Assembly (NCBI GenBank): GCA_036785375.1
Contig: JAWMAR010000031.1
Coordinates: 7,254,001-7,318,000 of the forward strand
Length of the DNA: 64,000 nucleotides
From: Leucoraja ocellata
Taxonomy: Eukaryota
Direction of reading: 5' to 3'
Part shown: positions 6,541-63,625 of the stretch, one piece after another
Layout of the letters: every line of letters begins with the position of its first letter
Numbering within the stretch: position 1 is the stretch's first letter
The notes under the pieces: model-generated
Database searches by the model: none
What the model saw: only the letters and a program-made list of their open reading frames with translations
What the model was told of the DNA's origin: nothing
Program-made: the position numbers and the translations under genes

Positions 6541-6677
6541 TTCAGACTGAAGGAGGGTCTCGACCAGAAATGTCACCTATTTCTTTTCTTCAGAGATGCT
6601 GCCTGACCCGCTGCGTTACTTCAGCATTTTGTGTCTATCTTTAGAGTAAATCAGCATCTGCAGTTCCTTACTACACA
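6541..6677 (+). mobile_element. Penelope-derived short unit (degenerate hammerhead core plus 3' tail)
   Basis: CTGAAGGAGGGTCTCGACCAGAAATGTC...AGATGCTGCCTGACCCGCTG...CAGCATCTGCAGTTCC, homologous to the 3' end of the element at 37218-37681. Confidence 0.75.
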
Positions 6678-8771: not shown

Positions 8772-8990
8772 AAACAAAAGACGCGAAGTGCTGGAGTCAG
8801 CGGGTCAGGCAGCATCTCTGGAAGATTTGATAGACAACTTTTCGGATCGGGACCCTTGTATGAAGAAGGGTCTCGACCTGGAACGTCGCCTGGTTATATC
8901 AGTCAGAGGTGCTGCTTGACCCGCTGAATTACTCCAATACTTTTGATCTTTTTTTTTGTGTAAACCAGCACCTGCAGTTCCTTGTGTCTT
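8772..8990. mobile_element. Penelope-derived inverted (fold-back) pair
   Basis: Reverse-complement copy of the unit followed by a forward copy, with the symmetry centre near 8860. Confidence 0.75.
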
Positions 8991-17497: not shown

Positions 17498-30552
<13,055 letters not shown>

Positions 30553-31880
30553 TCGAATAGCAAACGCACAACTTCCTAAAAAGGAACAAAAACATTAAAA
30601 AAATTGTCATATAGGTGTGACTGTTTCCCCCTCAACCTGGAACTCGGAGTCTGAGTGAGAAGAGAAGGCGATGAAGAATTTTGAACTGCTTTTTGGGAGG
30701 AAAAAAAAACAGATCAGAGTTTCTAAAACTTTTTACCGAGTTAAACCTTCATCCATCAGACTGCATCTTGATTGACATATCCCCGTTGTTTAAGTCTGTT
30801 AAGATTGTAGTCACAATCATTTAAAGAAGGTAACGAAAGCTCATTTTATCAGTATTGTAAGTAAACTCGAGCAGTTCATGCTGTCATAACTATCGTTGTT
30901 GAAAACAAATCCTCTAAGGTATTGGTCAATTCCACAACTATTGCAAGTTGCAGTTCACGATATAATAAGGGAAACAGTGTTCATGTATGTATATATTTAT
31001 TTATGTGTAATTTAATGGGAATTGTAAATATGGTGCGTCCGTTTAAACCTTTATTTTATTTATCTGGTGATATCGTTTATCTCCTGTTAGTGGGTTTTAA
31101 TCTTCATCAAACACAGTAGATCTTTCCGTGATTTTATGGTACTTAGAAAGATATCGGGGGAACCCTGGGAAACACATTTTAGCTCTCTGTAGCATGTTGT
31201 GGCGATAAGCAGTTGAACAGAATCCAAAAGAGAGGGGGGAGAAACGAGTTTTATATAAGCATCGAATTTAGTTTATAATACCACAGAAATTCGAATTTAA
31301 GAATAATACCTACTTTTTTTTATAAAAAGCATCTGTGATGTTTTTTTGTGTTTTAAAATATCCCATGTGTTGTGACAAAGGAATTATCTGACACTATGTC
31401 TTCTTTCCCTACTGAAAAAACCAGAGCAATAAACTGATATTGTCTATAGAACGGTTTAGTATTTTATTGTTGATCTGACAGCATTTGGGACGAGCTGATA
31501 TCTTGTATGACCGGTGGCTAAATTGGAAACAGTTTTTAGCTGTATTATATAGAGTTGTGTTGGCAATAGTTTACATGCCTGTCGATGTATCATAGTCCTT
31601 TGTTACCCAGAAAAATAAATATTTGATACGCTTTATGTCGATTTTTTTTATTCAGTGGCTCTCTGTTGCCCAGGCGTATTTTTACTTGGCAGTATTTTCC
31701 TGCAGCCTTTCTGTATGGCTTGCAGTAATTGGGTTTAACTCTCCCTTGACAATTGCTCCCCTGCAATAAGCAGCTGAACCCATTGTTTCCCTCAAGTATA
31801 ATAAAAAAAACTTGAACTTCAAGTTAGAGTTGAACAGGCTTGCTCTGCTACTTTATTGAGCCGTAATCAAAATAAATGAT
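30553..31880 (+). other. tfap2a: tfap2a 3' UTR with several AATAAA polyadenylation signals (31428, 31614, 31800, 31871)
   Basis: AU-rich, repeat-free sequence after the stop codon; four AATAAA hexamers, with U/GU-rich tracts after 31614. The true end is not determinable from sequence. Confidence 0.7.
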
Positions 31881-31883
31881 AAA

Positions 31884-31968
31884 GAGGTGGCGGTGGTGGG
31901 TTGGGAGGGCGGGGGTGGCGGCCAGGGGTTGGCCGGGCGGGGGGCGGGCAGGGGGTGGAGAGGGGAGT
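31884..31968 (+). other. G-rich tract (G-quadruplex capable) just downstream of the polyA signals
   Basis: More than 8 runs of GGG or longer within ~85 nt. Confidence 0.6.
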
Positions 31969-34900
31969 GCACCGTTCAGGTCTTTAATGCCCTTGAATAA
32001 TGTACCTAATGATGTGACAAGTCACTAAATAAACTTCGTAGATTTCCATGACACTGTGGTTATAAAATGCCGGATCTGCCGTTTAACTCGTTAACACTCT
32101 GCTTTCTTAATGACAGTGGGGGCTTTTTGGATAATGATCATAATTGTAATATTTTCTAGCGGACTTGAATGGAGACGTGTTGAGAGATACTGGTATGTTG
32201 TTTACAGCCTGCGTTAAGAAGTCGATTTACCGACCAACACCTTCCATCCCCACCCACATTCAATGCATTATGTTTCTTTTTCATTGCTATGGTGCAGTGC
32301 AGCCAATAGATTTAAAACAATAAGGTTAAAAGCGACATTACCCTTTTTATATTGAATTTTACAGGCTTGGCGATTCGTGAATGAAGTAATGTGCGTGGCG
32401 TGCGCACAATAATTTCTCAACTAAGAGATGGAATAAATCTGTGAGATGAGATAAGTTTCACGTATGGCATATAACAGGGTCGTTTGGTTCTTGTTAACTG
32501 CGATTTTTAATTGTTGTCAAGTGGCAGTCCGTTTTACAGTATACTAAACGCACGGGAAATCATAGCCGGAGAACCCGCCCCCCACCTCCTCTGTCCAGCT
32601 CTGTGTTTGTTTGACATGAAATGAAATGCGCAATGCTAGCAGGTGAGGTGAAGCGTTGTCTATCAGAGCTGTTCCTGGCCGGGTCTCAGAATGTGTGTGG
32701 GATACTGTACTTACCCAGGGCACAATTTAGAGACATTATTTCAAGTCCGCTCTTTATACAGGGGAAGAGACACAAAACTATCAAACAAAGTAAAGCATAT
32801 TTATTAAATTCCGAATGCAACGTCAAAGATGTAACTGCCCGAGAAGTGGATCTTAATTTTAAATAACGTTAGTGTGGCAAAACGAATGACTTCCAGTTGG
32901 TTGTGACGATCATGAGATTTTACAGGAATTATTAAACCTGTTCAAGCAATGCAGTTTAATCTTGCAAACATATTAAAGTTTTTAAAAAGTTAGAAAGCGA
33001 AGACTATGAAGCACAATTTTGCCACGTTGAATATGTCTTTATGTTGTTGAATCGTATGCTGCCAATATCGTCTCAATCGCTATACATTAATATTAATGAT
33101 AACTGCCTGGTAAAACCCCAAATCTAATCAATCCATTTTGCCTTGCTGTGGTAATAGTATTGTTTAAAAAAAGATGGACCTTGTTTAGACATTTCCCGGA
33201 ATATTTTACCCGTGATATTAATGTACTGCTGCCTCAGTATATTGAACCAAAGAGAGCTCCTTAAGTTAAATAACCCCCAGTATTTGTCCCAGTTTTCTTC
33301 GTTGACTTCTCGTGAGAGTTTTCCTGCCAGGAATTGCCTTTGATAAGAGCTGCGATTTGCTAATGGGGGTTCCTAGTGGGATGATCAGATGTCTCTCTCT
33401 GGCAGAAATGCGTGCACGCCTTTCGACTGAAAAAAAAACTTACTGGCCGCTGTTATCTAACAATACTGTGTGTGTTTACGGGGAGGGTTAGGGTTAATTA
33501 GCGCCATTATCAATCATTAATGCTTGCCTAACATGTCTGAGGTATAATCAGGTTTAGAAGACTGGAATCGACATCTGCTTCGTTCCAATTAAATATTTCA
33601 TGCTAAATCATTTATTACATACACAGCCTACCTTCCCCAAAGAGGCCGGTTGTTATTGTATCTGAATTAAAAATAAAGGCCATTTAACCATAAAATAGGA
33701 ACCTCACCCTTGGGGTGTTATCATAAAGTCAAATTGCCACAAAGCAATCTGAACAGCAACGATATCATTTCTGAAATGATTCTTTAGCATTAAAGTAGTT
33801 TTAGTAAAAGTCAGCGATGCTGAGAAGATTTTTAAGGATTAGTCTGCAGAAAAACGATCTGTCGACTGCTGGGCGAAGTGGGGGCAATAATAGTGAAATA
33901 GTTATCAACCCAAGGACGTCTCGGAATCAACTGCATGCGGGTCTCCAACTTTCTGGGTCACTAACTCTTTCTATCTAGTCTACTCACGCCCCCGACCCCA
34001 CCTCACCCCTACTGCAGCGTCTGTTTAGACGAACAAAAATGTCCCAAAAAATGCAGAGAAATAGAAAGAACAGGTCAAAAATATCGTTCCTAATTATTTG
34101 TGACTGATTAAACAAACATCGGAGCGACCCTCTCGCTTGCAATGGTTAAAATGAAAGAAGGGGGCACTCATTCAAAACATCAAGAAATCAAATATTTTAT
34201 AACGCCCAACTGTCTAGAGTGAACGACGGACTCGTGTGATCTGTAACAAATAATCCCGGGTTACAAGGATTTGGAGCCATCGCTAACCAGAAGAGACGTG
34301 GCGCTGTAGCGTTTGTCCTTGCGTTTAATCAAGTTACCCTGCCCAGAGAATATTCGAATTAACGACCATCCAACACTTAGACAACCTAGCGCTGTAAAGT
34401 GCGAGAAAACACGTTACATTTTCGGTTGCGAGATTTGATTAAGGATTAAAATCCCAAATGAGTTAATTTCGTTTTCGCTTTACAGATGCTGACTGACTAG
34501 TGATGCAATCTTAACGCTCTTATATATAGATTTAGCTTTCCTTTTAATGATGAAGCCTGATGCCTTCATGGGTCGGAACTAGATTGCGGATATCAGAAAG
34601 TGAAAAACGCCAAATACGTTCGATTGTTTGTTGTCCTTCAAGCGCCTTGCTCATTCCTCTCTCCTGCATTCCCAATTAAATGCACAATCTGTGCTGGTGT
34701 GCGTGTCCCAGTTTAAATAAAGTATATTGCGTGTTCCTTCTGCGCACCTGCGAGTGCGAACGGTAGCTTTATGAGGGGTTGGTTGGTGCAAATGTATTTC
34801 TGGCAACGTTGACAGTGTGGCAAAGTAGCGTGCTGAAGTTTGAGGGGTCGCGGTCTGAGGTGTTAAGTGTGTAATCTGTGTTTCTTTATTTGTAGCCTCG

Positions 34901-35698
34901 GTGCCCTGGATACAGGTTGGTGCATTTTATTTTTGACAGGCAAATTAACAGTTACGATTCAGTGCTTTAGTCTTCGTTTGGACAATACTTGGTTAACTCG
35001 TTTCGACTCTTGGTTGCGTTCAGTAATCTCTTGCATTGTGAGTTTGGATTCCATTCGGATCAATATACTGGTGGTCAATTCAGGTCAATATTTAACCACC
35101 TGTTCAAGGCTTCTCTGGGTGATCTTGCCTGTGTCTTCTTAAATCTTGCGTGGATTCCATGGTCCTTGTTAAAAACGAAAGATCTTGAAATTAGTTGTTT
35201 CGTTCAGAGGTTCGGGTTTACCATCTCCGTGTCATCCCATTGATCAAATCTACTAATTAGGATATAGATGGTGAATATCCAACCTATACTTGTCCCCCAG
35301 ATTGAATACAATGGTGGCAAACTGGTTGGTAGGCAGGACGTTTTGTTTACTGGTAGCATTGTGATAAATAGTTTAGAAGATGCGAATGCTAATATGAGTG
35401 AAACAGCGGCTCCCATCTAACCTTTATGGTGGAGGGAACAGAAAGTATCTAACCCATGTTGTAAAAGCTCTGGGGGTTTTGATGGGAAAATATAGAGGCT
35501 GAAGAAGGGTCACCTATTCCTTCTCTCCAGAGATGCCTGTCCCGCTGAGTCATCACAGTGAGGAAATGTTGGAGATTCACTGTGATAGATGTTTGTGTAA
35601 ACTGTGTTAAGTGTGGGTCTTGTTTTTTTTTTGTAATGTTAAGACGGCAGAAAATGCAATTTTGGTCAGACCAAGCTGTTTGAATGACAATAAAAGGC

Positions 35699-35752
35699 AT
35701 TCTATTCTATTCTATTCTATTCTATTCTATTCTATTCTATTCTATTCTATTC
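35699..35752. repeat. (ATTCT)n microsatellite
   Basis: Directly visible. Confidence 0.95.
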
Positions 35753-35948
35753 TGGCATTTTTTGTCTATCATTTTTTGTCTATCTATAGTCATCTAATTA
35801 TTTTTCCATCCCCACCATTCATTCCATCTCCCATTTTTTTTTACAAAATCACTTTGTTTAATCCCATCTCCCGAAAACAAGCCCAGAAAGCATCAAGGGT
35901 GCACCCCATCAGTCAAAGAAAGTTTGAAGTGTACAAGTTTCCATAGAC

Positions 35949-36135
35949 GGTACACAAAAAAGCTGGAGAAACTCAGCGGGTGCAGCAGCATCTCTGGAGC
36001 GAAGGAGATAGGCAACGTTTCGGCCCGAAACGTTGCCTATTTCCTTCGCTCCATAGATGCTGCTGCACCCGCTGAGTTTCTCCAGCTTTTTTGTATACCT
36101 TCGATTTTCCAGCATCTGCAGTTTCTTCTTAAACA
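35949..36135. mobile_element. Penelope-derived near-perfect palindrome (75-bp arms, 1-nt centre at 36024) plus 3' tail
   Basis: 35949-36023 is the reverse complement of 36025-36099 with 3 mismatches; the ORF track shows near-identical peptides on both strands. Confidence 0.9.
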
Positions 36136-37217
36136 AGTTTATATAGACCTTGGACTGACTTTTCGGACTTTAACATAGATCAACAAGATCATACAGTCTT
36201 TTAATATGTCAATTAAAATGAACACTTTGTGTAATATATATAATTAACGGAGATATGGTCCCACATGAAAATTCTGTAGGTGACATTTTCAAAGTAGATT
36301 GGGATATGCAAAAAAAAAAATCCGAAATATGTATCCCATCCCTGCCATTATCGAAGGTTATTTGTAATCTTCTTGATAGACCAGCAGAAGATTTATCCCA
36401 GCCATGCCAAACCAATTGGGGTAGTTCTGCATCAGTGACTTGCCACAGTCAATGTCACTATTATAGTGCAACGTGATATATTAACATTTAGTTTGAACAT
36501 TTAATTTGTGTTAGCTCCAAATTGTAGAATAACGTGGATTTAATGAAGGTCAGTGGCACAAGGAAGGTAGAGTGTGAGGCTACTGGTGAGTGAGATGTTG
36601 AGAATGAAGTTACAAACATTACACTCATATTGATCTGACATAGATAGTATGTACAAAATGGAGCACCCATTTTTGCCTCCTCACTTCCTCACCTCGTTTT
36701 CATTCTCCTGCACTTGCTCATCAGTGAAATCATGCAGTAAGTGGCAAGGAATGTCCCCTCATGGTGGCAAGGTGGAAGAACATACAATAGCCAACTGTGT
36801 GGTTTGATGCTGAATACAGTAGAGTCCATACAGTCGGACCAAATTCCTATTTTGCATGGCTGTTGGTGTGTGCTTGTTGCCTGTATAGCATTACAAAATG
36901 TATCATCCACTTCATCAGTAGATAGCTTTTGACCCATAGTGATAGCTGGGCCAAAATAGTATGTCGAAGGAATGAAATCCGGTTAAATTATAATGCAAAG
37001 CTGATGTAAATTTGCCCATAAAGTAGTCTCCGTGAAAATACCTTGTGTTCTAACATGGTAGATCTTAGCAACATAAGCATTTATTGACATAGTCATCTTA
37101 ACAAAAGTTGGCAATGCAGTCTCTGTCCCGCACCAAAATTGCAATTCCAGCTGGAACAGGTGGAAGGTTCATTGAACATGGATGTCTTACATTGTTCCTC
37201 ATAATGGTTTGGTTCAA

Positions 37218-37681
37218 AGAGACTAAGCGGGGAGACTAAGCGGTTGGGCGATCGTTTCGCCGAACACCTCCGCTCAGTCTGCAATAACCTACCTGAACTC
37301 CCGGTGGCTCAGCACTTCAACTCCCCCTCCCATTCCCAATCCGACTTCTCTGTCCTGGGTCTCCTCCATTGCCAGAGTGAGCAACACCGGAAATTGGAGG
37401 AACAGCACCTCATATTCCGCCTGGGTAGCCTGCGTCCTGATGGCATGAACGTTGAATTCTCCCAATTTTGCTAGCCCTTGCTGTCTCCTCCCCTTCCTTA
37501 ACCCTCGAACTGTCTCCTCCCATCCCCCCGCCCTCGGGCTCCTCCTCCTCCCTTTTTCCTTCCTTCTCCCCCCCCACCCCCCATCAGTCTGAAGAAGGGT
37601 TTCGGCCAGAAACGTCGCCTATTTCCTTCGCTCCATAGATGCTGCTGCACCCGCTGAGTTTCTCCAGCAATTTTGTGTACC
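37218..37681 (+). mobile_element. Penelope-like element 3' fragment: GIY-YIG endonuclease C-terminus and 3' UTR with hammerhead motif
   Basis: GETKR-LGDRFAEHLRSV...VAQHFN...RKLEEQHLIFRLGSLRPDGMN is the Penelope GIY-YIG C-terminal signature; TSD TTGGTTCAA at 37209-37217 and 37682-37690. Confidence 0.85.
37584..37622 (+). ncRNA. Minimal type I hammerhead ribozyme-like motif in the Penelope 3' UTR
   Basis: CUGAAGA (37589-37595), A, GGGU-UUCG-GCCA stem-loop II, GAAA (37609-37612), CGUC cleavage triplet. Stem I is only ~2 bp, so activity is uncertain. Confidence 0.55.
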
Positions 37682-37823
37682 TTGGTTCAACAGAGTTGTT
37701 CTGTGAAAATGCTAAGTGGAATGACCTCCTGTCTGAGAATATTTCTTCTCCCCTCATTCTCATTAATTCCAATGTCCTGTTCCCAGTACCCGATGGTCAT
37801 TCTCCCAGACATGTTTTGTTCCC

Positions 37824-38312
37824 AATAATAATAATAATAATAATAATAATATATTTTATTGTCATTGCACATAAACGCAACGAGATTTGGTATGCAGCTT
37901 CCATCTGATGTCATAACATAAATAACTAATAACATTTGGATTTAGATACCCCGAGAACATGGTTTGTAAAACGACCAGTAAAATAGTCAAAACAGTTCAA
38001 CAGACTAAAGTGCAGATGTGTCTGTGCGACGTGACCATCCGAGGGCGACAGTCCAGGGGGGATGGGGGGCACTCAGCAGGGCCGGTTCAGAGCCGCTGTA
38101 GCTCTGGGAATGAAGCTGTTCCTGAGTCTAGAGGTTCGGGCGTAGAAGGCCTTGTAACGTCTGCCGGAGGGAAGTAGTTCGAACAGTCCATTACAAGGGT
38201 GTGATGAGTCTTTATGGATGCTGACGGCCTTCCTGAGGCACCGTGTGTGGTAGATGCCCTCCAAGGCTGGTAGCTGTGTCCCAATAATCCTCTGCGCTCT
38301 GTGGACGACGTT
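37824..38312 (-). mobile_element. Rex-Babar LINE 3' end with (TTA)n tail
   Basis: IYHTRCLRKAVSIHKDSSHPCNGLFELLPSGRRY...TSRLRNSFIPRA; (TAA)n at 37824-37850. Confidence 0.85.
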
Positions 38313-39199
38313 CCTAATGAAATGTACACCAGGGCAGGTAGTTTATTCAGAAATCACAAATGCAACCTCAATTCTTCAAACCTGCCACATCTCTCCCAAA
38401 GGAATAAAAACAGCGAATGCCGGAAATACTCAGCCGGCCAGGCAGCATCTGTGGAGAAAGGAACAGAGCAGGGCATTTCATCAGATGTCTTCTCATGACT
38501 TCCATAATTTGAAACAACTACAGAATGCAAAAACACTTGTGGAGATGTGCCAGGACCAGATGAATTCAATCAATAACAAAACTGTAAGTGATATTGGCAT
38601 GAGTTCTGGCTATTGAATATGTTAGGTTAATGATGGGCATTGGTTAGAGCACTGTGTTTAAGATGGCAGCCCTGGAGATGTATTGGCATATTGTTTCTGT
38701 TTTGTATTAGCTTTCCACACCGATTTAAGGCTGATCTGTTTCCCTGCATTCTTCCAATGGATGCCCATTGAGCATATACAGATCACATTACTAACATGGT
38801 ACCTGGTACAATTTGCCGAGCAAGTACTTGTGTGCTGCCAATGAGAGTTTGGACCTCTTGATGTATGGCTATGATCCCAATTAACTGCTCAATCTATTTT
38901 AGATTTAACTGAGAAAGAAAATGTTGACCTACACATTGGGGAAAACGCTGCTCTTCTTTGAAGATCAGCACCTCTGATAATGACACATGTTAAGTATTGC
39001 AAGCTGCCAGCCTGCATTAACCGTTCACACTGAATAATAGAGCTTAGTTCAACACCTGAACCTGACTCCTACTGCTGAGCCAAACCAATACTTATATTAA
39101 CAGAATCATTCTCACACTACTAGTCCTGCAAAAAAACATAGACTTTGCCTTAATGACTCATGCTTCCAAGAATCTGTGCTGGAATCACTTAAAAGTGCC

Positions 39200-39610
39200 T
39201 TTCGTTTGCATTTACAATGCAGATTTAACGTCGGTACAAAATGATTTCATTTCCCAAAGGACTGTAATAGCAAGTGAAGGTCCTTTGAAGAGTAGTCTCT
39301 GTTGTAAAGTAAGAAGCGCAGCAGTCAATTTCGGCAGAGCAAATTCTCACAAACAACAATGAGATAATGACCAGATAATCCATCTTTGTGTTGTTTATTG
39401 AGTGATAAATATTGGCAGGGAAATAGGGATAACATTCCAGTTCTTCTATTGAAATTAAAGTTTCCACCCAACGAGGACACAAGGAACTACAAATGCTTAG
39501 TTTATTTTATTGTTCTAAAGATTTGGTTATTTGTTCTATCTGAAAGTCAGCACCTGTGACAAGTGCAATGCCCCCAGGTACTGGACCCCAAGCATCAGGC
39601 AAACATTTTG
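39200..39610 (-). mobile_element. Deu-domain SINE (SacSINE1/AmnSINE-like), ancient
   Basis: GCAGTCAATTT...CACAAACAACAATGAGATAATGACCAGATAATC...GATAAATATTGGC matches the recalled reverse-complement Deu-domain consensus. Confidence 0.65.
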
Positions 39611-39689
39611 GTCTAATTATTCCAACACCACTTGGGCCTTCTGACTCAAAGAGGAGACTCCCACCAATTCAGCCATTGTTGGCTTTTTT

Positions 39690-40213
39690 CCAGATATAAT
39701 AATTTGAGGAAGAACATTCTTGCTGTTGAGGGAGTGTAGCATAGGTTCATTAGCTTAATTCCCGGGATGGCAGGACTGACGTATGATGAAAGATTGGGTC
39801 GACCGGGCTTGTATTCACTGGAATTTAGAAGAATGAGAGATATCTTTTTGAAACATATAAAATTCTTGAAGGATTGGACAGGCTTGATGCAGGAATAATG
39901 TTCCCTATATTGGGGGAGTCCAGAACCAGTGGTCACAGTTTAAGAGTAAGGGGTTGGCCATTTAGGACTGAGTTGAGGAAAAACATTTTCACCCAGAGAG
40001 TTGTGAATCTGTGGAATTCTCTGCCACAGAAGGTAGGAGAGACCAATTCAATGGATGTTCTCAAGAAAGATTTAGATTGAGCTCTTAGGGCTAACAGAAT
40101 CAAGGGATAAGGGGAAAAAACAAGAAAAGGGTTCTGATTCTGGATGATCACATTGGCTGGCTCGAAGGGATGAATGGCCTACTCCTGCACATAGGTTTCG
40201 ATGTTTTTATGTT
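39690..40213 (+). mobile_element. CR1 LINE 3' fragment
   Basis: SRTSGHSLRVRG..FRTELRKNIFTQRVVNLWNSLP and the shared 3' UTR. Confidence 0.88.
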
Positions 40214-40292
40214 TTATATTAACTTTTTCACAATGCAAACATTGAAATATTGATTGGGATATTGATTGCCCCACACTGTAAGATTGAGGGAA

Positions 40293-40700
40293 AAACTTGC
40301 ATTCACCCAGGATCTTTCAACACCTGAATGCTTCCCAAAGGACTTTGGAGCCAATTTCATAACTTTTAATACAGAGGTCCAGTTGAAATTTAGGAAGCAT
40401 GCTACTAACTTGAACATGGTGCTCTCCCATAAATAGCATGACTATCAACCTGAATGTGTGTTTTATGGTGTCAGTTGAGAGATCAATATATTGGCCAGGC
40501 CATCTGGGCTTGGGATCTTTAACTTTCTCCTGAGTAAACAGGCGGGATCTTGCTTTAGCATCTCATCTGAACATGTTCCCAACATGTCAGAACTTCCCCA
40601 CAGCACATTGGAGTAAAAGTTAAGGGTTTTATGCTAAACTATCTGGAATGGGATCAAACTCAAATAATTTGATGCAGGCAACAGCTCTATTAACTGATCT
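40293..40700 (-). mobile_element. Deu-domain SINE, highly degenerate
   Basis: Collinear similarity to 39200-39610 (CCCAAAGGACT...ATATTGGCCAGG...CATCTCATCTGAA). Confidence 0.5.
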
Positions 40701-41329
40701 GCAGCGGACAATATTTATGCAACTTCATAGATTATTTAGACCGTTGATTCATCAACCTTGTCTTCTGAGTATGACTTTCATCTTGACAGAAGAAACTGCA
40801 GATGATGGAATCTTGCATAAAACACAAAGTACTGAAGGAACTCAACGGGACGGACAGCATCTGTGGAAAGATAAACAGTAATTTTTTTAGGTCCCAAGAC
40901 CTTTATCGTGTTTTACACTTTTAGTCCTCACAAATATTTTTAGAACCTGTGAAATGTTTGCTACAGAGATAGCGTGCATGTGAACAAGGCCAGAGAAATA
41001 GAGAAAGATCTCCTTATTTGAACTTCTTCAAGTGTTCCACACTGCTTCATTGCAAACATTGATCTTATGACTTTATGTGTACAGTGCAACACCATGATTC
41101 TGTAGCTTTCCCCATTTCAAATATGTAATCAATATTCCATTAAAGAAATAGAAATCTTGACCTCAGCCACTCTGTTCTGTAGTGCAGCAATCCTCTTCAG
41201 AAATATATTTCATCCAATCTTTCTTTGTGATAATATTAAACTAATTTGCCATCAGTAGGCACTCCCTATCAGCAAGAAGTAACCATGAGGCTATTTCTCA
41301 CAGTTTAACAAAACTTATGTATGTTAGAG

Positions 41330-41900
41330 TCATAGGAGTTGGAGCTAAATCCTTTAACCCACCAAGTTCATACTGACCACCAATTCACAATAATCAATTT
41401 ATTTATTCTTCCAGTATTCTCACCAGTTCCTTTCAGGTTGCACCACACTTACACACCACACGTGGCAAGTGATAATAGCCATTTGATCTACCGATTGTCT
41501 TTAGAATGTGGGAGGAAACTGGAGCATCACATGGTCACAGGGAGAACATGCAAACTTCTCATTGACAGCAGGTACACACGTCTCGGGCCGAAACCCCTCG
41601 GACTGTCTCCTCCCATCTCTCAGCCCTCGGGCGCCTCCCCCTCCTTTTTCCTTTCTTCTCCCCGCCCCCCACCCCCACCCCCATCAGTCAAAAAAAAAAA
41701 AGTTTCGGCCTGAAACGTTGCCTATTTCCTTCGCTCCATAGATGCTGCTGCACCCGCTGAGTTTCTCCAGCATTTTTGTGTACCTTCGATTTTCCAGCAT
41801 CTGCAGTTCCTTCTTAAACACATCTCATTGACAGCACTTGGTTTCAGGACTGAACCCAGGTCTCTGGCACTACGAGGGAACAGCTCTACCAGTTGCATCA
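41330..41900 (-). mobile_element. HE1/V-type SINE interrupted by a Penelope insertion
   Basis: GAATGTGGGAGGAAACTGGAG...GGTCACAGGGAGAACATGCAAACT, then resumes GAACCCAGGTCTCTGGCAC...CAGCTCTACC (tRNA head on the minus strand). Confidence 0.7.
41571..41822 (+). mobile_element. Penelope 3' UTR insertion with short inverted 5' piece
   Basis: 14-bp TSD TCTCATTGACAGCA (41557-41570 and 41823-41836); body homologous to 37500-37681. Confidence 0.85.
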
Positions 41901-41952
41901 TAGTTGTCAACGTTTTCCAAGCCATAATGGAAATAAATATAGTGTATCAAAT

Positions 41953-42040
41953 ATAGACACAAAAAGCGGGTGTAAGTCAGCGGGACAGGCAGCAACACTG
42001 GAGAGAAGGAATGGGTGACATTTCAGGTCGAGACCCTTCG
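41953..42040 (-). mobile_element. Penelope-derived short unit
   Basis: TAGACACAAAAAGC...TCAGCGGGACAGGCAGCA...GGTGACATTTCAGGTCGAGACCCTTC is the reverse complement of the unit. Confidence 0.75.
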
Positions 42041-42235
42041 TCTATCAAGGTCCTCCTCCTAACTATAGTTCCCTACATCTGTAAAGTATATGACGTGTAC
42101 CCACACCTGCATAATCTAAAAATCTGAATTTCCCCTGAAAAGGGGATTAATAAAGTATTTCTTATTATTATTATTATTAATAAGGCACATACATTTCTTC
42201 ATTCCTTAATATGCAGCTAATTCAAACCTATGTTA

Positions 42236-42275
42236 TCTATCTATATACTTTTAAAACTGTGTGTGTGTGTGTGTG

Positions 42276-42315
<40 letters not shown>

Positions 42316-43280
42316 TGTGTGTATGGCATTTTGCCTTTGAAACGATTCTCCTCGAAAACCAGATGCAAAAACGCGGAGATATTTACAATTTCGGTAGGGA
42401 TTTATCTTATGAGTTCAGAAATCCACTCCTTGATCAATTATTTCCCTAGATTTTGAATAAAATTGTTCACAAAACTCACTTAAAAAAATCGGCGCTTGAG
42501 CTGCTGACGTCACAATGCCCACATGCCCACCAATCGAGGCCCACCTGCCCCTCCCTGCGCCGTCCCCCCACTGCCCGTGCACATCTGAATCCTTTCCATA
42601 TCCCCCACCCAATTGTAGAACATGGCAGCCCTGGCGGCCATTATTCCGTCAGGGAAACTCGGCGCAGCGAGTTATGTCGCGCCCCTCCCTCCCTCCCGCT
42701 GCAAACTCAATGCGCTGACAGTCGCACTGCTCGCAAGTTCTTTGATAGAAACCTTGTGACCCCCCCACNNNNNNNNNNNNNNNNNNNNNNNNNNNNNNNN
42801 NNNNNNNNNNNNNNNNNNNNNNNNNNNNNNNNNNNNNNNNNNNNNNNNNNNNNNNNNNNNNNNNNNNNNNNNNNNNNNNNNNNNNNNNNNNNNNNNNNNN
42901 NNNNNNNNNNNNNNNNNNNNNNNNNNNNNNNNNNNNNNNNNNNNNNNNNNNNNNNNNNNNNNNNNNNNNNNNTTTATCTCTCTCTCCCTCCCCCTCCTCT
43001 CTCTCTCTCTCTCTCCCCCACCTCTCTCTCTCTCTCTACCCCCCCCCCTCTCTAGACGCTCCTGCGAGTTGGGGGCTATGCATCAGTAGATAGTGCGGTT
43101 ATGGGGTAAAAGGAGCAAAATAATATTAATATATTGACAAGGGGGTTAATTAGTGTGTGTGGGGGTAGTTAATCTGTGTGTGGGGGTGGATAATATGTGT
43201 GACGCCACATGCCCCCCCCTCCCCCCCCCCCGCAACCGCACATTGGGGGAACAGACCCAACGGGTCTGCACTTGGTCTAG
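42236..43280 (+). mobile_element. Non-autonomous Helitron (spans gap 42769-42972)
   Basis: A|TC 5' end, internal (GT)n, 3' hairpin CAGACCC-AAC-GGGTCTG (43252-43268), then CTAG|T; no TSD. Confidence 0.8.
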
Positions 43281-44499
43281 TATATTTTAATTATCTCTGG
43301 GTATTGGTTTAACCGCATAACCACCATTCATTGGCCATTGCTGTATATTGTCTAAAGTGTACCTCTGGTCTGTCTCCAGAAACAAGCTTCTGAGATCCCA
43401 GTGATATATTCTAATATGCTCTTCCAGAAAATGACATTTGAAAAAAAGAAATCATGGGAGATTTTATATATTGTATTTCAATTTTGGACATAAATATATG
43501 ACTCTAATAAATTCAAGTTAACTCCAGAGAGAATTAGATGATAACATTTATCTGAAGGTGTGAACAAAATACCTTATTCTATTGCCTACAGATCTAATGC
43601 CCTTGAGATGCTGGTATTTCTCTGTTTTTACGCAATGATAATAGGACACCATTCCTATATGCCTGGTCCTAATACTTAAATTCCAAGTCTCTCGTTCCAT
43701 ACTGAATCACCCCACTGCAAGCATTTTGGTCTCTATCGTTGTCTTCTGTGGGCTTTTCCCCATTCCTTATAGAGATTTTATATCTTTGGAATCTATAGTC
43801 CACATATTATGTTATGTCAAAAGCATGCTTTTGCTCCCATGTGCTTATGTATTAACCTTTTTTCTGGTTCCAAATATTTTGTTCTTATTCCTTCCGAGTA
43901 AGAACCTGTTCTCTTTTGGGAACAATATCTATAATATTACGCAATAGGCATTATATCCATCATATTATATAAACAAATTCAGTGAGGAATACTGTCTTCC
44001 TCTATTGTGGGTGACTATGTTGTACAAAATACCTACCGTTTGCCACCAGATTTAATCTGCTTGCATATCAAATCATTCAGATCTAGATCTTGAAAACTGG
44101 CAAATATGAGCTCCCACTGGTTTTACGACCCTTCCATCCAACACAACACATGTGCCAATAGTAATTTGATATCACTTGATATTTATTCTATTTCTGGAAC
44201 AGGATAATATGTAAACACTCCGAAGGATCTAATACATTTTCTGCCTTGGGATTTCTGAAGCTCTTTTTAATTTTTTGCTTCACCTCTGTTTTAAAGTGCC
44301 ATGCTTGAGTATTTTCGTTACACTATTCACACTTAAAGAATATTTATGTCATTATATACTGTACAGTGATGTGATTTCAGAAAATGGTCTATGATCGCTT
44401 AAGATTTAAACAGACTTCCATCCTTTCTGCATCTCCTGTTCTCGCTCTTCCAGCTGAATATAAGGACTTGATCTAGGTACTCAATTTGCAAAACATTTT

Positions 44500-45420
44500 A
44501 GTGTTGTGGAAATCATTTCCTGTGTTTAGTGTAAGCCTGGGGCTAAGTTAGGAGAATAAAAGCATACCCTCCATTGTTGTTGCAATTTGCTTCCATGTGA
44601 TTGGCTCCACCAATTTTTAATAATTAAGTATCTTTGTTATTTTAGGCTCACAATAGTCCAATTTCTAAATCCCCACAGTTTAATGCATTTATCTGAAACA
44701 GAAGCAGATTAGTTGAAGGCACTATAGTCCTATTTCGATTAAATCTTCATTGGACTGTCAGTATTCCGAGATATTTAAAGATACACAGAATGTGATACAA
44801 ATTCAAGCCAAGCCTTAGGACTCAACTTACAAAGAGACCTAATTCGGTAACTTGGGACACAAGCAGTATTTTTATTTTTTTCTATTTGCCTTTTATAACT
44901 TGACACGAGGAATATAATTCTGATAATTCAACAGTGACAGGTTCTAAATACAACTCAGAAGCTCCGGCTGGTGCTGGACCCAGGATTGTTATATGCCTGC
45001 AGTCCCAGGTCTGTGTCTCCTCTCTCAGTCTGATCACTCTGCCGCAGCCGGGGGGGAGTCTTGCCTCAGGCCAAACATATGCTTCTTTCCAGCAAACTAA
45101 TACAAATTCACCATGGAGAAATAATTGCTCCAGTGAACATTTTTTCTCTCAGCTTTGTCATTCGCTCACTCAAATCGCTGAGGCACACGCCATTTAAATC
45201 AGGGGCTTTGATGCTTGCCTCTCCTTTTTAATGAAAACCTGGACCCTTGTAAATGATGTGAGCGTTTAAAAAGGCTTCATGGTTCTCCATCAAATGCATA
45301 ACAGTTTGGCAAATGGATGAATCCCGACAGAGAAGTTTCAACAACAACTTCAGATGGGTTGATTTGGATCTCTTTGTAATTTGATAAAATTGATTGCTTT
45401 TCTCATCTCTTTTATTAAAG
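44500..45420. promoter_or_regulatory. Candidate downstream enhancer with AP-2 and TCF/LEF sites
   Basis: GCCTGGGGC (44535), GCCTCAGGC (45063) and CTTTGATG (45206) inside a repeat-free island. Confidence 0.4.
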
Positions 45421-48400
45421 AAAACTTAAATATATTTGTTTTGAGTCCTCTCATTCTTCTTTTTCTGCCCATCAAATGGTTCTCAATTTTCCGTCTTGTG
45501 CCTTAATATGTTGCCTTTTTGTTCTTGCTTGTCTCTTAAATGTCTTAGTTATTCCTATCACTCTCACTCCCTCTCACACAAAGAAACATGTCTCCAATAT
45601 GAATAATTACCAAAGAATAGGAAGAAAATAATCCATTATATACCACTTAAAGAGAAAAAAAACATGAAAGAAAATCAGAGCCATGAAAAGGAGTGAACAG
45701 CTTTTTTTATTATTTCAATTTGTTTAAATTATAAAAAAAAAGCCCCTTAAAGTTAAACCTCTGTGAAATGACATAATTCCACAAACACAATGCCACAATC
45801 GTTATTTATTTCAGGCAGATTAAATTTGTAGAAACCTGAGATTGGATTTTGAGATATTTATTACTGAAGATTCAAATGAGTTTAGTAGTGCTGTCTTTTC
45901 ATCCAGGGACCAGTTTGCTAAGTTTCATTTTTTTGTTAACGTTTTGAATAGTGCACTTGTCTGCTTAATACGGAGCAACTGTTATGCTGTGAGCTAGTCT
46001 AGAATTAAATAAACGTTGATGGCTTAAGACCACACAAATATATTTACAGTTTCAAAATATGTATGTTAATATAGAAAAGATGGTGGATACAGTTGTAATG
46101 GATTGGGTGACAGGACTGAGTTGCTGCTTGCTCACAGAGATGGTTTATCCAACAGTGATTCCAGCTGCCTCTCGATTCCCCCCCCCACCCTTTAGATAAG
46201 AACAAATCTGAGGTTTGAAAGTGAATTAGAAATGAACCATTTTATGTTTTTGCTTGAAAGTTTATGGTTAATCACTGATGGTACAGGAAACGACAAGGAA
46301 AGTTAAGCCAAATACATTACCCATATTAATTTAGAATGTGTATTTACTGCACAGATATAATTTGTAAGTGTAACAGGGAATGGTGATAAGCAATTGTAAT
46401 GTATTAGTCGGTAACTACATTTCAGCTCCATTCTCTTCACCAGCACAAACCTATATTTAGGTTTGAATGAACTGACCCTTGAAGGCAATAACCTAGATTT
46501 CTGTCCACAACGCTGAATTCAGTTTCAATTTAAGCAGCAACATTTTATGGCTGCTTGACACACTGGGAGGCAAGTCCTCACAAAGCAAATGCAAGTAAAT
46601 AGGAGTTTTACCAACAGGACATGCACAATAGGGGTCAAGAAGGAACATGTATTCAACTCCACCCATAATCAGCTAATAAATATATATAACATGAGGTTTT
46701 GAGTGCACACACATAAATGCTCATCCCTGTAATCATAGGGATGTGTGCCAGTCTCAAAGGCAGTCAAATTTAATTACCAGTGCGCACCCTTATTTACCAA
46801 CATTATGTAATAGTAATTTGTATTTAACGCACAGTTGGTTATACAGGATGCATGCTTAGCATAGATTCAGAACATGTGTGTTTAATACTGAAATATGTGC
46901 TTTAATATAGATACACCAAATGCACATAGAAGGCAGATGCACAACGTGTAGACTTAACCCAATCATACAAATGTTGTACGTAAGATAGGCGTACAGCACA
47001 TGCATTGCAACTAACTGATGAAAGGGTTGCAATTATGTCTGATAGGACACAAAATATGATACTGTTTTTTTTTGATGGGCCTTTCAACTGTGATGTGTCC
47101 CGCTAATAAATGTGGATTTAATTTTTTAAGGAATACATCACTATTCATCAAGCCATACACTTTAAATCCTGAGACTGTTATAAACATCGCAACGGTGTTC
47201 CTTGCATCCATCTAGCCAAGACTATGATCCAATTGAACGATACAATTGATTCTAAATGGATACCAACATAATTGAAGAAATCATGAAGGAACTGAAACAT
47301 GCTGGCAATGGGTTGGGATTCTCTGACTGGGGAAAAAGAAAGCAAATATTTTTAAAGAGTATTTTATTTCAGTTTAGTGTTTTCTTGACTGTTAATACTT
47401 TAATGAATTGTAATGAATGTAACTTTAAAGAAAAATAAGTTGTATTTATTCTAATTTTTTCCAAACATTTATTAAAATTGAAGAAAATAACACCACAGGC
47501 TTTGATTTTTTAGGCAGAACTCTGCCTCCATCCAATTTCACCTCCAGTCTGGGTTATTCCAAGGGCAGAGATTCAGATCAGCACTGCTGAAGACCCAGTT
47601 GCAGCCTTCAGACCCCTCTGCTTGGTGGGATGGGACAGGCAGAGTAATCTTTGAGGACAATTAAATTAACCTTCTGAAATAAAGCATGGTCACAAGAGTG
47701 AATGGGCACTATGAGTGCAAGCGGTGAGCTGGATCTAGACCAGTGCTTCAGCTCAGTTCTGAATGAATGATAATTGACCAGAAATGTTAATTCTGTTTTC
47801 CTCCCCATAGATGCTGCTTGATTTTTTGGGTACTTGCAACATTTTCTGCTTTTACTTTACATTTCTTGCATCTGTGATAATTTATTTGGACATAAAAGTG
47901 TGCAAGTATTTATTAAACATTTTAATTTGCATTTGTTTGAATTTTCAGAGCCTATTGGTGGTGTAAATTGCAATGGTCCAAACTTTAATCACATATCTGA
48001 CCTCTGAATTGAATCGCACAGAAACAGAAATAACAGCAATTTATATTTTAGTTCTATTTGAACCTTTTCTGATTCAGGCGTAAGATGTGAGTGCAAGTCA
48101 GTACAGACAGAATTTGGCTATAAAGGTGCGCAACTGTTCTTTTTCTCCCCTGACTTTCTTAAAGGTAGTGAAACTTTATGGAGTACAGTATCACCAGCTC
48201 TCCACGGCACTAGCTTTGCATCTACTCTTGACATAATGCTTCCAATCGATGTGTCATTCGATAACATGTGTTGTTGCTGTCATCAGGGGAACACGTGCTG
48301 ATTTTCATGCGGGTATTTGCAGTTCTTTTGCTACAATTCTTGAGTCCATAATACAGTTATTGTTTCTCAAATAATTAAGTTCATTTGATGGTTGATGGTT

Positions 48401-55883: not shown

Positions 55884-56228
55884 AGATTTGGAGAGAAAAG
55901 AATTGTCACCAACACTGAAAAGCAGTTCACCTTTCCTCTGACCTACCTGGTTCCACCCATCATCTACCAGCTTCAGCCACAACACTACCCCTCCCCTTCC
56001 CCCATCCAGCGTGATCGGTTCCAAGTACCCTACCCCCTACCTCATCTTGTTCACCCTACTTCACACCAGCCTCTGCCTCACCAATCCCTCTCTCTTGTAC
56101 ATGCACGGCTCCCCAACATACATATCACCTGACCTATGGAATTCCAACTCTACGCAACATCTCACATATATTTCCATACATTTTTGAGGCAATCTAGTAG
56201 TAACATTAATAAAAAAAATTCTAGTCAA

Positions 56229-56321
56229 AGGTAGACACAAAATGCTGGAGTAACTCAGCGGGACAGGCATCATCTCTAGAGAGAAGGAATGTGTGATGTT
56301 TCCGGATGAGACCCTTCTTCA
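56229..56321 (-). mobile_element. Penelope-derived short unit
   Basis: GGTAGACACAAAATGCTGGAGTAACTCAGCGGG...GAGACCCTTCTTCA. Confidence 0.75.
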
Positions 56322-57015: not shown

Positions 57016-57199
57016 AGGTAGACACAAAGTGCAGGAGTAACTCAATGGGTCAGGCAGGATGGAGGAGAGAAAGGATGGGTGACGTTTTGAGGTGGAATGT
57101 CCGACCCAAAAAGTCACCCATCCCTTTTCCCCAGAGACGCTGCCTGTCCCGCTGAGTTACTCCAGCATTTTGTCTCTACCTGCAGTTCCTTCCTGCACA
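57016..57199. mobile_element. Penelope-derived inverted pair inserted in a degenerate CR1 (~56775-57430)
   Basis: Arms 57016-~57087 and ~57102-57181 are reverse complements; TGAGATG-GAAG-like repeat on both flanks. Confidence 0.75.
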
Positions 57200-59839: not shown

Positions 59840-59973
59840 CAGTCTGAAGAAGGGTCTTGACCCAAAACGTCACCCATTCCATCTCTCCAGAGATGCTGCC
59901 CGTGCCAGTGAGTTACTCCAGCTTTTTGTGTCCACCTTCAGTTTAAACCAACATCTGCAGTTCCTTCCTACAC
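59840..59973 (+). mobile_element. Penelope-derived short unit with hammerhead core (GAAA mutated to AAAA)
   Basis: CAGTCTGAAGAAGGGTCTTGACCCAAAACGTCACC...CATCTGCAGTTCC. Confidence 0.8.
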
Positions 59974-61004
59974 ATACAAGTTTAATTGGCATTGGTAAAA
60001 TTGCAAATTCTAAATTGTGGAGGGTAGGGCTAGTGTGCAGGGATCGCTGGTTGGCGCTGCTGTATTCTCTAAATAAAATTAAGCTAAAACTAAACAAGAG
60101 GACATAGATTTCATATGAGAATAAAGAGTTTTACACAGTGAGTGGTCAATACTGGAATGCACTGCCAGAGGAGGTGGTAAAATCAGATGCAATGACAAAG
60201 TTTAAGAGCCCTTTGGACATTTATACAGGTACTTAAATTGGCACGGATATGATTTTAACATGGGCAGAAGGCTGACTTCAGTGTGGTGTTCTGAAGCGGC
60301 CATTTTTATGCTGTACAACTCCACAACTCTATGACGACACGGTTCTACTACATGGGTCTATATCTTGTGTTGTAAAAGCATAAAATCAATCCATTGGTCA
60401 ATGCGAGTTAATTTTGGATTTGGGATAGAATAGATATTTAATAAATTTAGGTTTAGGTTAGATTTACTATTGGTACATATATTGAGGTATTGTGAAAGGC
60501 TTTGTTTTGCATGCTATCCAAACAGATCAAAATTCCTTTCTACTTACTTAATCTCGACCCCTCATATGTTTATAAATGTGAATCAATTCTCTCCTTCAGC
60601 CTCCTACGTAATCCTATCTTTCCTCATAATTACAATTGTCCAGTCTTGCCAAAGACTAACATAAGTCTCCTTTGAACCCTCTTCAATACAATCACATCTA
60701 TTTTCTGATATAAAATGGTGCACACAACGGAAGTTGGGCTCTGACTAATATTGTTTGCAGATGTAGCATAACCTCACTTCTTTTATATTCTATGCATCAG
60801 TTGATAAAGGAAAGGTATCTGCTTGCACTTACACCACCTATTACTCCAGACTCCTTTGTTCTTCCACACTACTGAATAACTTGTCATTTGTTCACACTGC
60901 TTTGGATTAAACTCAAATTGCTACTATTTTCCAAATAACCGGTCATCCATATATTTTATAACATTTTAGTTCAGCCTCATTTGGAGCATTGTGGGCAGAG
61001 AGGA

Positions 61005-62924: not shown

Positions 62925-63625
62925 ATTTAGGTTTAGGCACAAGTTTATTATTGTCATGTATTCCAACGTGCAGAGTATTGCACGCTATTCAAACAGAACA
63001 GATACGCTATATACAGTGTAAATATAATAAAGTCAAACTCAAGTACAAATAGACAGAGCAATGGGAAAAACACAGAGTGCAGAATATAGTTCTCATATTG
63101 TAGTGCATCAGTTCCTTTGACAAAAAGATAGACACAAAATGATGGAGTAACTCAGTGGGTCAGGCAGCATCTCTGCTGAAAAGCAATAGGTGACGTTTGG
63201 AATGAGATCCTTCTTTAGACTGAGAGTGAGGGGAGAGGGAAACTATGAAAAGGTATAATGAACAAATGTATGAAAGGTATGAAAAGAACAACTCAATGCC
63301 AGCAACGATGATCAAGGAAAGGACCTTCTGCTGGATAGGAGCAGGGAGAAAAAGGAATTAATCGGGTGGGAAAGTCTGAAAATGGTGGCTGCTTTTCGAG
63401 TCAGCGTGAAGTGTAGAGAGAGTCAATAGTAGGGAGTCTAGTCTGTGTGATAAATGATGCTATTGAAGGGGTTTGAGAGAGTCATTGGAGGCATGCTGAA
63501 TTTCCTGAGGGAGTAGAGGCAATGGTGTACTGTTTTCTCTGCAACATCAATGTGGTTGGTCCATGACAGATCATTGGTAATATTAATGGCAAAGAACTTG
63601 AGGCTCTCAACCATTTCGACTTCCA
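62925..63625 (-). mobile_element. Degenerate Rex-Babar LINE remnant with a Penelope unit inserted at ~63128-63330
   Basis: VESLKFFAINITNDLSWTNHID...LYSLRKF; reverse-complement Penelope unit at 63128-63225. Confidence 0.6.

Follow-up and report, generated by a model that had tools for sequence, protein, structure and literature searches.

The window, the whole 64-kb stretch of skate DNA analyzed here, contains the end of an AP-2 gene, which we take to be tfap2a, and, beginning 5.4 kb after its stop codon, a palindrome that was the sole hairpin reported by a scripted scan of the entire window. The initial annotation described a near-perfect palindrome of 151 bp, and this description holds: two arms of 75 bp each (35949–36023 and 36025–36099) surround a single central C at 36024 and mismatch at three positions (36007/36041, 35994/36054, and 35953/36095). 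As DNA, the palindrome has a folding energy of −93.8 kcal/mol (z = −18.9), which none of 200 shuffles equaled. The element itself is larger than was first described. The right arm extends a further 36 nt to 36135, giving a full insertion of 187 bp, and a 16-bp direct repeat with two mismatches flanks it on either side. The same insertion is present on a second contig of the assembly (locus L237), and its right junction, together with 225–245 bp of flank, was found in contigs from public runs X1 and X2, which belong to two different studies. A contig from organism C stops at 35948, at the left edge of the insertion. The features of the locus are given below, with element positions numbered from the central C (36024) as 0.

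30247–30552, plus strand: last coding exon of the AP-2 gene (tfap2a-like); PF03299, E 2.7e-15
35933–35948, plus strand: left copy of the target-site duplication, 16 bp; 2 mismatches to the right copy (1 in L237)
35949–36023, minus strand: inverted tail-less arm, +1 to +75, with the fixed short end of the family as its outer end
36017–36031, unstranded: 15-nt quasi-palindrome of the element, where the arms join; axis at C 36024
36025–36099, plus strand: paired part of the forward arm, +1 to +75; GAAAC-GUH half of the hammerhead motif, without the CUGAAGA half
between 36034 and 36035: predicted hammerhead cut, from the core numbering of PMC4209133 applied by eye
36100–36135, plus strand: 36-nt tail, +76 to +111, on one arm only
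36133–36148, plus strand: right copy of the target-site duplication; its first 3 nt are common to the tail end
37220–37683, plus strand: separate 5'-truncated linear copy of the Penelope-like family, ending at the short end; endonuclease C-terminus at 37229–37474, then a pyrimidine tract, then a hammerhead-like motif from 37587 with C11.1 changed to A
41571–41822, plus strand: second head-to-head insertion of the family, with an internally deleted short arm and a long tailed arm

The frame of the linear copy at 37220–37683 shares 98% identity with the C-terminal end of a 759-aa frame with reverse transcriptase (RT) and GIY-YIG domains elsewhere in the genome; a Pfam search with the 81-aa fragment alone returned no families. 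The insertion at 41571–41822 lies between perfect 14-bp target duplications (41557–41570 and 41823–41836). Its short arm lacks most of the middle, and the CUGAAGA core of its long arm is replaced by an A run. Both downstream units (at 37597 and 41702) had been read as containing the self-complementary GTTTCGG/CCGAAAC. Each in fact has a mismatch, A or T at +2, but the full match characterizes the family majority, being present in 87 of the first 100 copies listed. Older relatives, 70–83% identical, lie at 6542–6677, 8790–8983, 35503–35550, 41946–42042, 56225–56321, 57019–57181, 59840–59974, and 63125–63223; those at 8790–8983 and 57019–57181 match in both orientations and may be the degraded remains of head-to-head pairs. 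Positions 35904–35926, immediately left of the target duplication, read CCCCATCAGTC followed by an A-rich stretch. This resembles the ribozyme-region start of the copy at 41680, either by chance or as an older remnant.

That the insert is a Penelope-like head-to-head stub is virtually certain. The Penelope-like origin proposed at the outset was borne out by a parent element that encodes RT and GIY-YIG domains and by the arm itself, which is the end of the neighboring family copy. In a long copy (L316), a 763-aa frame matches RVT_1 above the cut-off (E 4.5e-7) and GIY-YIG at E 0.0011 (19.7 bits, under the cut-off of 22.6), and its 3' end runs into arm sequence. The linker between RT and endonuclease carries a CxxxxCxxC motif, given as a mark of Neptune and Nematis in the relevant passages of PMC8557442. 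The Cys-rich linker would thus place the parent in a Neptune/Nematis type, the motif alone not separating the two clades. The arm unit occurs, as expected of a pLTR, at both ends of the element: 3' of the ORF in five of five long copies, and 5' of the element body in 7 of the 30 loci that a 5' probe retrieved. Six of the latter were aligned, and in all six of these full 5' copies, one of which starts at −18, the body continues past +111, so the outer ends +75 and +111 both lie inside the 5' region of the element. Three loci (L336, L349, and L325) have an open frame without an early ATG that begins at −13, inside the hammerhead motif, and runs 134–369 codons into the body. At L336:1260–2700, a 1.4-kb insertion bounded at both ends by a 14-bp duplication starts at −18, includes 1.3 kb of body, and closes with a second unit that extends from −17 to the short end. 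Long-armed head-to-head pairs, each arm measuring hundreds of bases to ~1 kb, were seen at L153/L154, L171/L172, and L320, the first two with one tailed and one tail-less end.

Linear copies of the family resemble the minimal type I hammerheads of metazoan Penelope-like elements, as described in the relevant parts of PMC4209133. As read from the sequence, they share the CUGAAGA and GAAA boxes, the unpaired base before stem II, G10.1–C11.1, the palindromic CG at 15.2–16.2, and UH; the exact core pattern occurs in 40,051 copies. They differ from those hammerheads in lacking a helix I of 4–5 bp, since only a U-G and a G-C pair are possible. The hammerhead motif of D. virilis likewise has a helix I of 2 bp. 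We considered whether a spliced short 5' exon restores helix I and rejected this idea, as 100 listed of the 1,796 copies starting at GGTCTGAAG had no shared upstream sequence by eye. An extra G or two is common upstream of these starts and may be untemplated. An Rfam search of positions 30000–48000 at E values up to 1 gave no hammerhead match, and the hits to hairpin-shaped microRNA and plastid families were rejected because all were under gathering scores.

The palindromic insert lacks a complete catalytic core. Both arms end at −7, the entire CUGAAGA half (−17 to −11) is absent, and the insert therefore cannot be a ribozyme. Nor is the palindrome folded exactly at the stem-II hairpin, as had been claimed. 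Stem II is GGGU-UUCG-GCCC, from −9 to +2 with a UUCG loop, and the axis lies 3.5 nt beside it on a competing hairpin that spans −7 to +7 and comprises loop II, the 3' strand of stem II, and GAAAC of the core. Calculated as RNA, the axis hairpin and stem II have energies of −5.0 and −5.1 kcal/mol, respectively; the axis hairpin belongs to the lowest-energy fold of the cDNA strand.

We examined 161 loci with the exact junction (101 with a GCC tip, 30 TCC, and 30 GCA). Removal of duplicates, by a heuristic that probably also discarded a few genuine singletons and let one pair be counted in two sets, reduced these to 137, of which 18 were unclassifiable and 119 had two classifiable arms. One tailed and one tail-less arm were present in 113 of the 119. 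A flanking repeat of 9–19 bp (mode 14–15), differing each time, was found in 104 of the 113 by a permissive search uncontrolled for chance. The window insert conforms to the layout of an inverted, 5'-truncated pLTR with a tail of 30–40 bp on one side, its own tail measuring 36 nt and its target-site duplication 16 bp. A MITE with fixed ends is excluded by this layout and by the variable duplications; instead of symmetric terminal inverted repeats (TIRs) and a short fixed duplication, the insert has ends that are asymmetric by 36 nt. The expectation that the copies would not form a single family with fixed TIRs and target duplications was thus upheld. Solo linear copies end at either outer site, so each DNA end can start a copy alone. 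The two arms agree in subfamily type in 66 of 85 classifiable elements, compared with 21% expected at random, and are of different type in the other 19, where many of the differences fall within 5 nt of the short end.

Genome-wide, 15,142 head-to-head pairs contain both anchors at a spacer of 0–120 nt. The window's spacer of 37 accounts for 4,540 of them (30% versus 0.8% if uniform), 36 times the uniform share over 121 lengths. Given that uniformly distributed breakpoints would have undermined the initial annotation, its prediction of preferred breakpoints survives, and the second site that it named, CTTCAG/CTGAAG, is also in use (737 exact copies). Among the first 50 pairs listed, 9 have the window's spacing, the others include CTTCAG/CTGAAG joins, and many junctions are blunt or contain inserted bases; two meet at the predicted ribozyme cut, in a sample too small to judge by. 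The proposal that a ribozyme stem determines where folding occurs is not supported: a patch of the ribozyme region does recur at the junction, but that patch is not stem II and 70% of pairs use other junctions.

Asymmetric pairs bear on whether such junctions derive from one cDNA or two. In 2,075 pairs the tail-less arm reaches −19 and the tailed arm is cut short, and in 510 the reverse holds, a ratio of ~4:1 that was obtained on asymmetric junctions, including older subfamilies, and that would apply to the symmetric class by extension. Tested on 43 arms, the two search patterns recovered 98% and 95%; when 30 loci were fetched for each pattern, 29 and 27 proved to have the intended arm types. 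An unbiased sample of 50 pairs, judged by eye with symmetric, duplicate, and unclear cases excluded, likewise had the tail-less arm reaching further in 18 cases versus 7. Of 30 loci, 22 have a leading arm that ends at −19 or −20, adjoining TCAGT and CAG after the pyrimidine tract; TCAGT here is presumably an initiator-like motif. Because the 100 listed copies share no upstream exon, the 5' end of the transcript is the likelier cause of this stop. The Penelope element of D. virilis has an internal promoter and a 5' intron, according to the relevant passage of PMC2377424. A snapped-back cDNA copies only what it already holds, so a tail-primed fold-back would make the tailed arm reach at least as far 5' as its partner, and a fold-back of the +75-primed strand would leave no tail.

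The exact junction occurs with three tips: GCC (2,323 copies), TCC (1,795), and GCA (391). The latter two differ from GCC by one and the same change, G to T at −1, made on opposite strands, and each gives a GNA triplet on one strand. TCC/GGA makes up 39.8% of exact tips versus 352 of the 40,051 linear cores (0.9%), a 45-fold excess. Descent of the TCC tip from a single source subfamily was rejected, because five named arm types carry it. In run X5, a 38-nt contig (shorter than our bridging rule) spans the TCC tip with no difference at a depth of 234, indicating that TCC is not peculiar to this assembly; some T reads in the RNA run must come from linear copies. Among 18 duplicate groups, four differ by an inverted centre and one by a changed tip (GCC versus GCA), which points to change after insertion. 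Three of the four inverted-centre duplicates (L013/L014, L065/L066, and L225/L226) share an identical A-to-G change 14 nt from the centre, a second shared change that could be an assembly or polishing artefact. TCC and GCA copies have more symmetric arms (23 symmetric versus 24 asymmetric changes, against 13 versus 77; with rare variants only, 11 versus 22 against 10 versus 64, p = 0.03). Folding energy with DNA parameters did not discriminate among the tips, all of which scored −7.1 kcal/mol. A caution here is that the G:C closing pair found at this tip is the weaker one (PMC3201870). Template switching at inverted repeats, as treated in the relevant parts of PMC8604942, resembles what we observe in the inverted 1–3-nt centres between duplicates and in the symmetrized arms; those accounts of arm homogenization and spacer inversion do not describe a recurring G-to-T tip change, and polishing could mimic inversions.

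The exact-tip class is also unevenly distributed. From listed copies, seven regions of contigs C1–C6 contain 2, 51, 32, 0, 2, 45, and 56 (p = 3e-12), whereas pairs of the CTTCAG, longer-spacer (899 in total), and asymmetric classes show an even distribution (p = 0.60). Flanking GC content of the exact-tip class is 0.454 versus 0.421 (p = 5e-6). Neither the TCC/GGA excess nor the clustering in GC-richer regions is explained, and a model of two primings does not predict uneven spread; region-dependent repair of a two-cDNA intermediate would be a guess at its cause. Linear copies with the TCC change also cluster (C61, C70, C33, and distal C1), with 17 of the 100 listed on C61. This pattern hints that mutation at the short hairpin depends on the region.

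Four things were observed directly: how the insertion is laid out, which element it derives from, where its two fixed outer ends fall (+75 and +111), and that the junction recurs. Our reading of them is that the window hairpin is a 187-bp head-to-head insertion of a Penelope-like 5' end, with one tailed arm, one tail-less arm, and a 16-bp duplication, that probably arose by two primings and not by one fold-back. The GIY-YIG endonuclease would make a staggered cut of about 14–16 nt, and each DNA end would prime reverse transcription, one at +75 and the other at +111, the template usually being a single RNA or RNAs from one source copy. The cDNA begun at +75 would generally run to the 5' limit of the RNA near −19/−20, a limit placed from DNA ends, and the +111 cDNA would stop earlier. 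If both reached the 15-nt quasi-palindrome, they could anneal there, with overhangs trimmed and gaps filled; the ribozyme sequence would supply the self-complementary patch, its catalytic fold not being needed. The hairpin tip would afterwards be likely to mutate (G to T) and to invert by template switching. The agreement of arms in 66 of 85 elements suggests that both cDNAs would come mostly from one RNA or one source, although such high concordance is also expected from snap-back.

Single-strand snap-back was the mechanism favored by the initial annotation, and self-priming at palindromes has been proposed in passages of PMC3846280. Under this account, synthesis primed at the tail would pause within the ribozyme region, and the cDNA would fold back at the quasi-palindrome, serve as its own template, and end at +75 through a cut or a stop. 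In favor of this account are the strong hot spot, which lies where the cDNA strand folds, the mostly concordant arms, and the GGA tips, which could represent a stalled end with an added A that folded back. In the exact junction class, moreover, 72 of 113 elements have a centre base that follows the tailed arm, versus 41 (p = 0.005), a polarity that fits either a tail-primed fold-back or the annealing of a tail-primed strand onto a leading cDNA and that is weakened as a test of mechanism because 4 of the 18 duplicate groups differ in it; later inversions of the centre can only even out a bias, not reverse it. What snap-back does not accommodate is the arms themselves. A single cDNA cannot give tailed and tail-less arms with fixed ends unless a second device stops it at +75, the very site at which solo copies start. 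In asymmetric pairs, the tail-less arm usually contains bases missing from the tailed one, which self-copying cannot provide, and the fourfold excess of such pairs is at odds with this account, as are the 19 elements with discordant arms, many of whose differences nevertheless fall near the short end. We therefore consider snap-back unlikely and regard two separately primed cDNAs joined by annealing as the probable origin.

A quite improbable origin is the later collapse of a longer head-to-head pair by deletion or template switching between two near-direct 15-nt repeats. Collapse would suit the clustering of the class in GC-richer regions, the changes in tips after insertion, and the more symmetric arms of TCC and GCA copies. 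Yet donors are not depleted where the class is rich, the CTTCAG, longer-spacer, and asymmetric pairs being evenly spread; none of the 22 printed pairings of non-identical duplicates differs in spacer length; conversion from asymmetric pairs predicts the opposite centre polarity; and the class is not older than the CTTCAG class (0.63 versus 0.73 changes per 33 nt). Less probable still, and in our view scarcely credible, is a hairpin family that spreads by itself, whether as a MITE-like DNA transposon or as a hairpin RNA that the Penelope protein copies again. Such spreading might account for the thousands of nearly identical copies, in which three tips recur, and for the regional pattern peculiar to them. 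Against it, the ends are asymmetric, the target duplications are both long and variable, every tip type is shared among five to seven arm subfamily types instead of being tied to one, and the same ends occur with dozens of other junctions. A re-copied hairpin RNA also sits poorly with the Anolis element, whose priming RNA, in the relevant passages of PMC11167929, extends beyond the start sites into sequence that these stubs lack.

The preferred reading of two primings has a close biochemical parallel in PAc, a Poseidon element of Anolis carolinensis. In the in vitro experiments excerpted from PMC11167929, the Penelope-like protein cuts and extends both DNA strands and starts at two internal sites in the 5' region, downstream of the hammerhead and bounding the tail as in the skate element, with ribozyme cleavage dispensable. 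The skate parent differs from PAc in its Cys-rich RT–endonuclease linker, and those portions of the PAc work give no joining of inverted arms and no leading site. Pen2a_Av of Adineta vaga (PMC3846280, with the general layout in PMC8557442) shares the inverted, 5'-truncated pLTR, the 30–40-bp tail at one end, the target duplication, and palindromes at the inverted junction, where the inverted and direct pLTRs overlap by 15 bp (15 nt here). As far as those sources describe it, Pen2a_Av differs in that the skate stubs have no ORF between the arms, a duplication of 14–16 rather than 8–10 bp, and thousands of copies that share one junction. Self-priming on an antisense template was proposed for it, whereas the skate counts favor two primings. 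The layout, the one-sided tail, and the self-priming proposal are thus already in print in these partial sources, and a passage of PMC8557442 describes the origin of Penelope-like inverted ends and of the one-sided tail as unresolved. A search of the literature outside most subscription journals turned up no publication that treats such stubs in cartilaginous fish, twin priming by Penelope-like elements, or the tip change, and no relevant passage was found in preprint 10.64898/2026.07.22.740005.

A role as dsRNA or as a cruciform at tfap2a, raised in the initial annotation, is not supported, as no locus-specific RNA for the palindrome was found among public runs. RNA run X21 contains family-level reads only, 98% of which continue into different sequence; the A>G and T>C differences in this run are also present in DNA contigs. 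Having thousands of counterparts and no complete ribozyme, the insert is by default regarded as a dead stub; it is most likely exactly that, and probably inert. For annotation, such stubs could be mistaken for MITEs or for microRNA precursors, the Rfam microRNA matches being sub-threshold. Their value lies in number: the >15,000 pairs in one genome provide counts that separate the models, namely the fixed pairing of start sites, the 4:1 lead of the tail-less arm, and the hot spot holding 30% of pairs. Tentatively, and as something we would put below an even chance, priming may be ordered, with the +75 start leading to a capped RNA 5' end, the +111 start trailing, and the two joined at the patch made by the ribozyme; the stubs would then act as a genome-wide hairpin reporter with a region-dependent G-to-T hot spot and a GNA triloop tip in about half of exact copies. 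Should independent assemblies confirm the tip change and the regional clustering, the family would also serve as a map of DNA hairpin formation and mutation in a vertebrate germ line.
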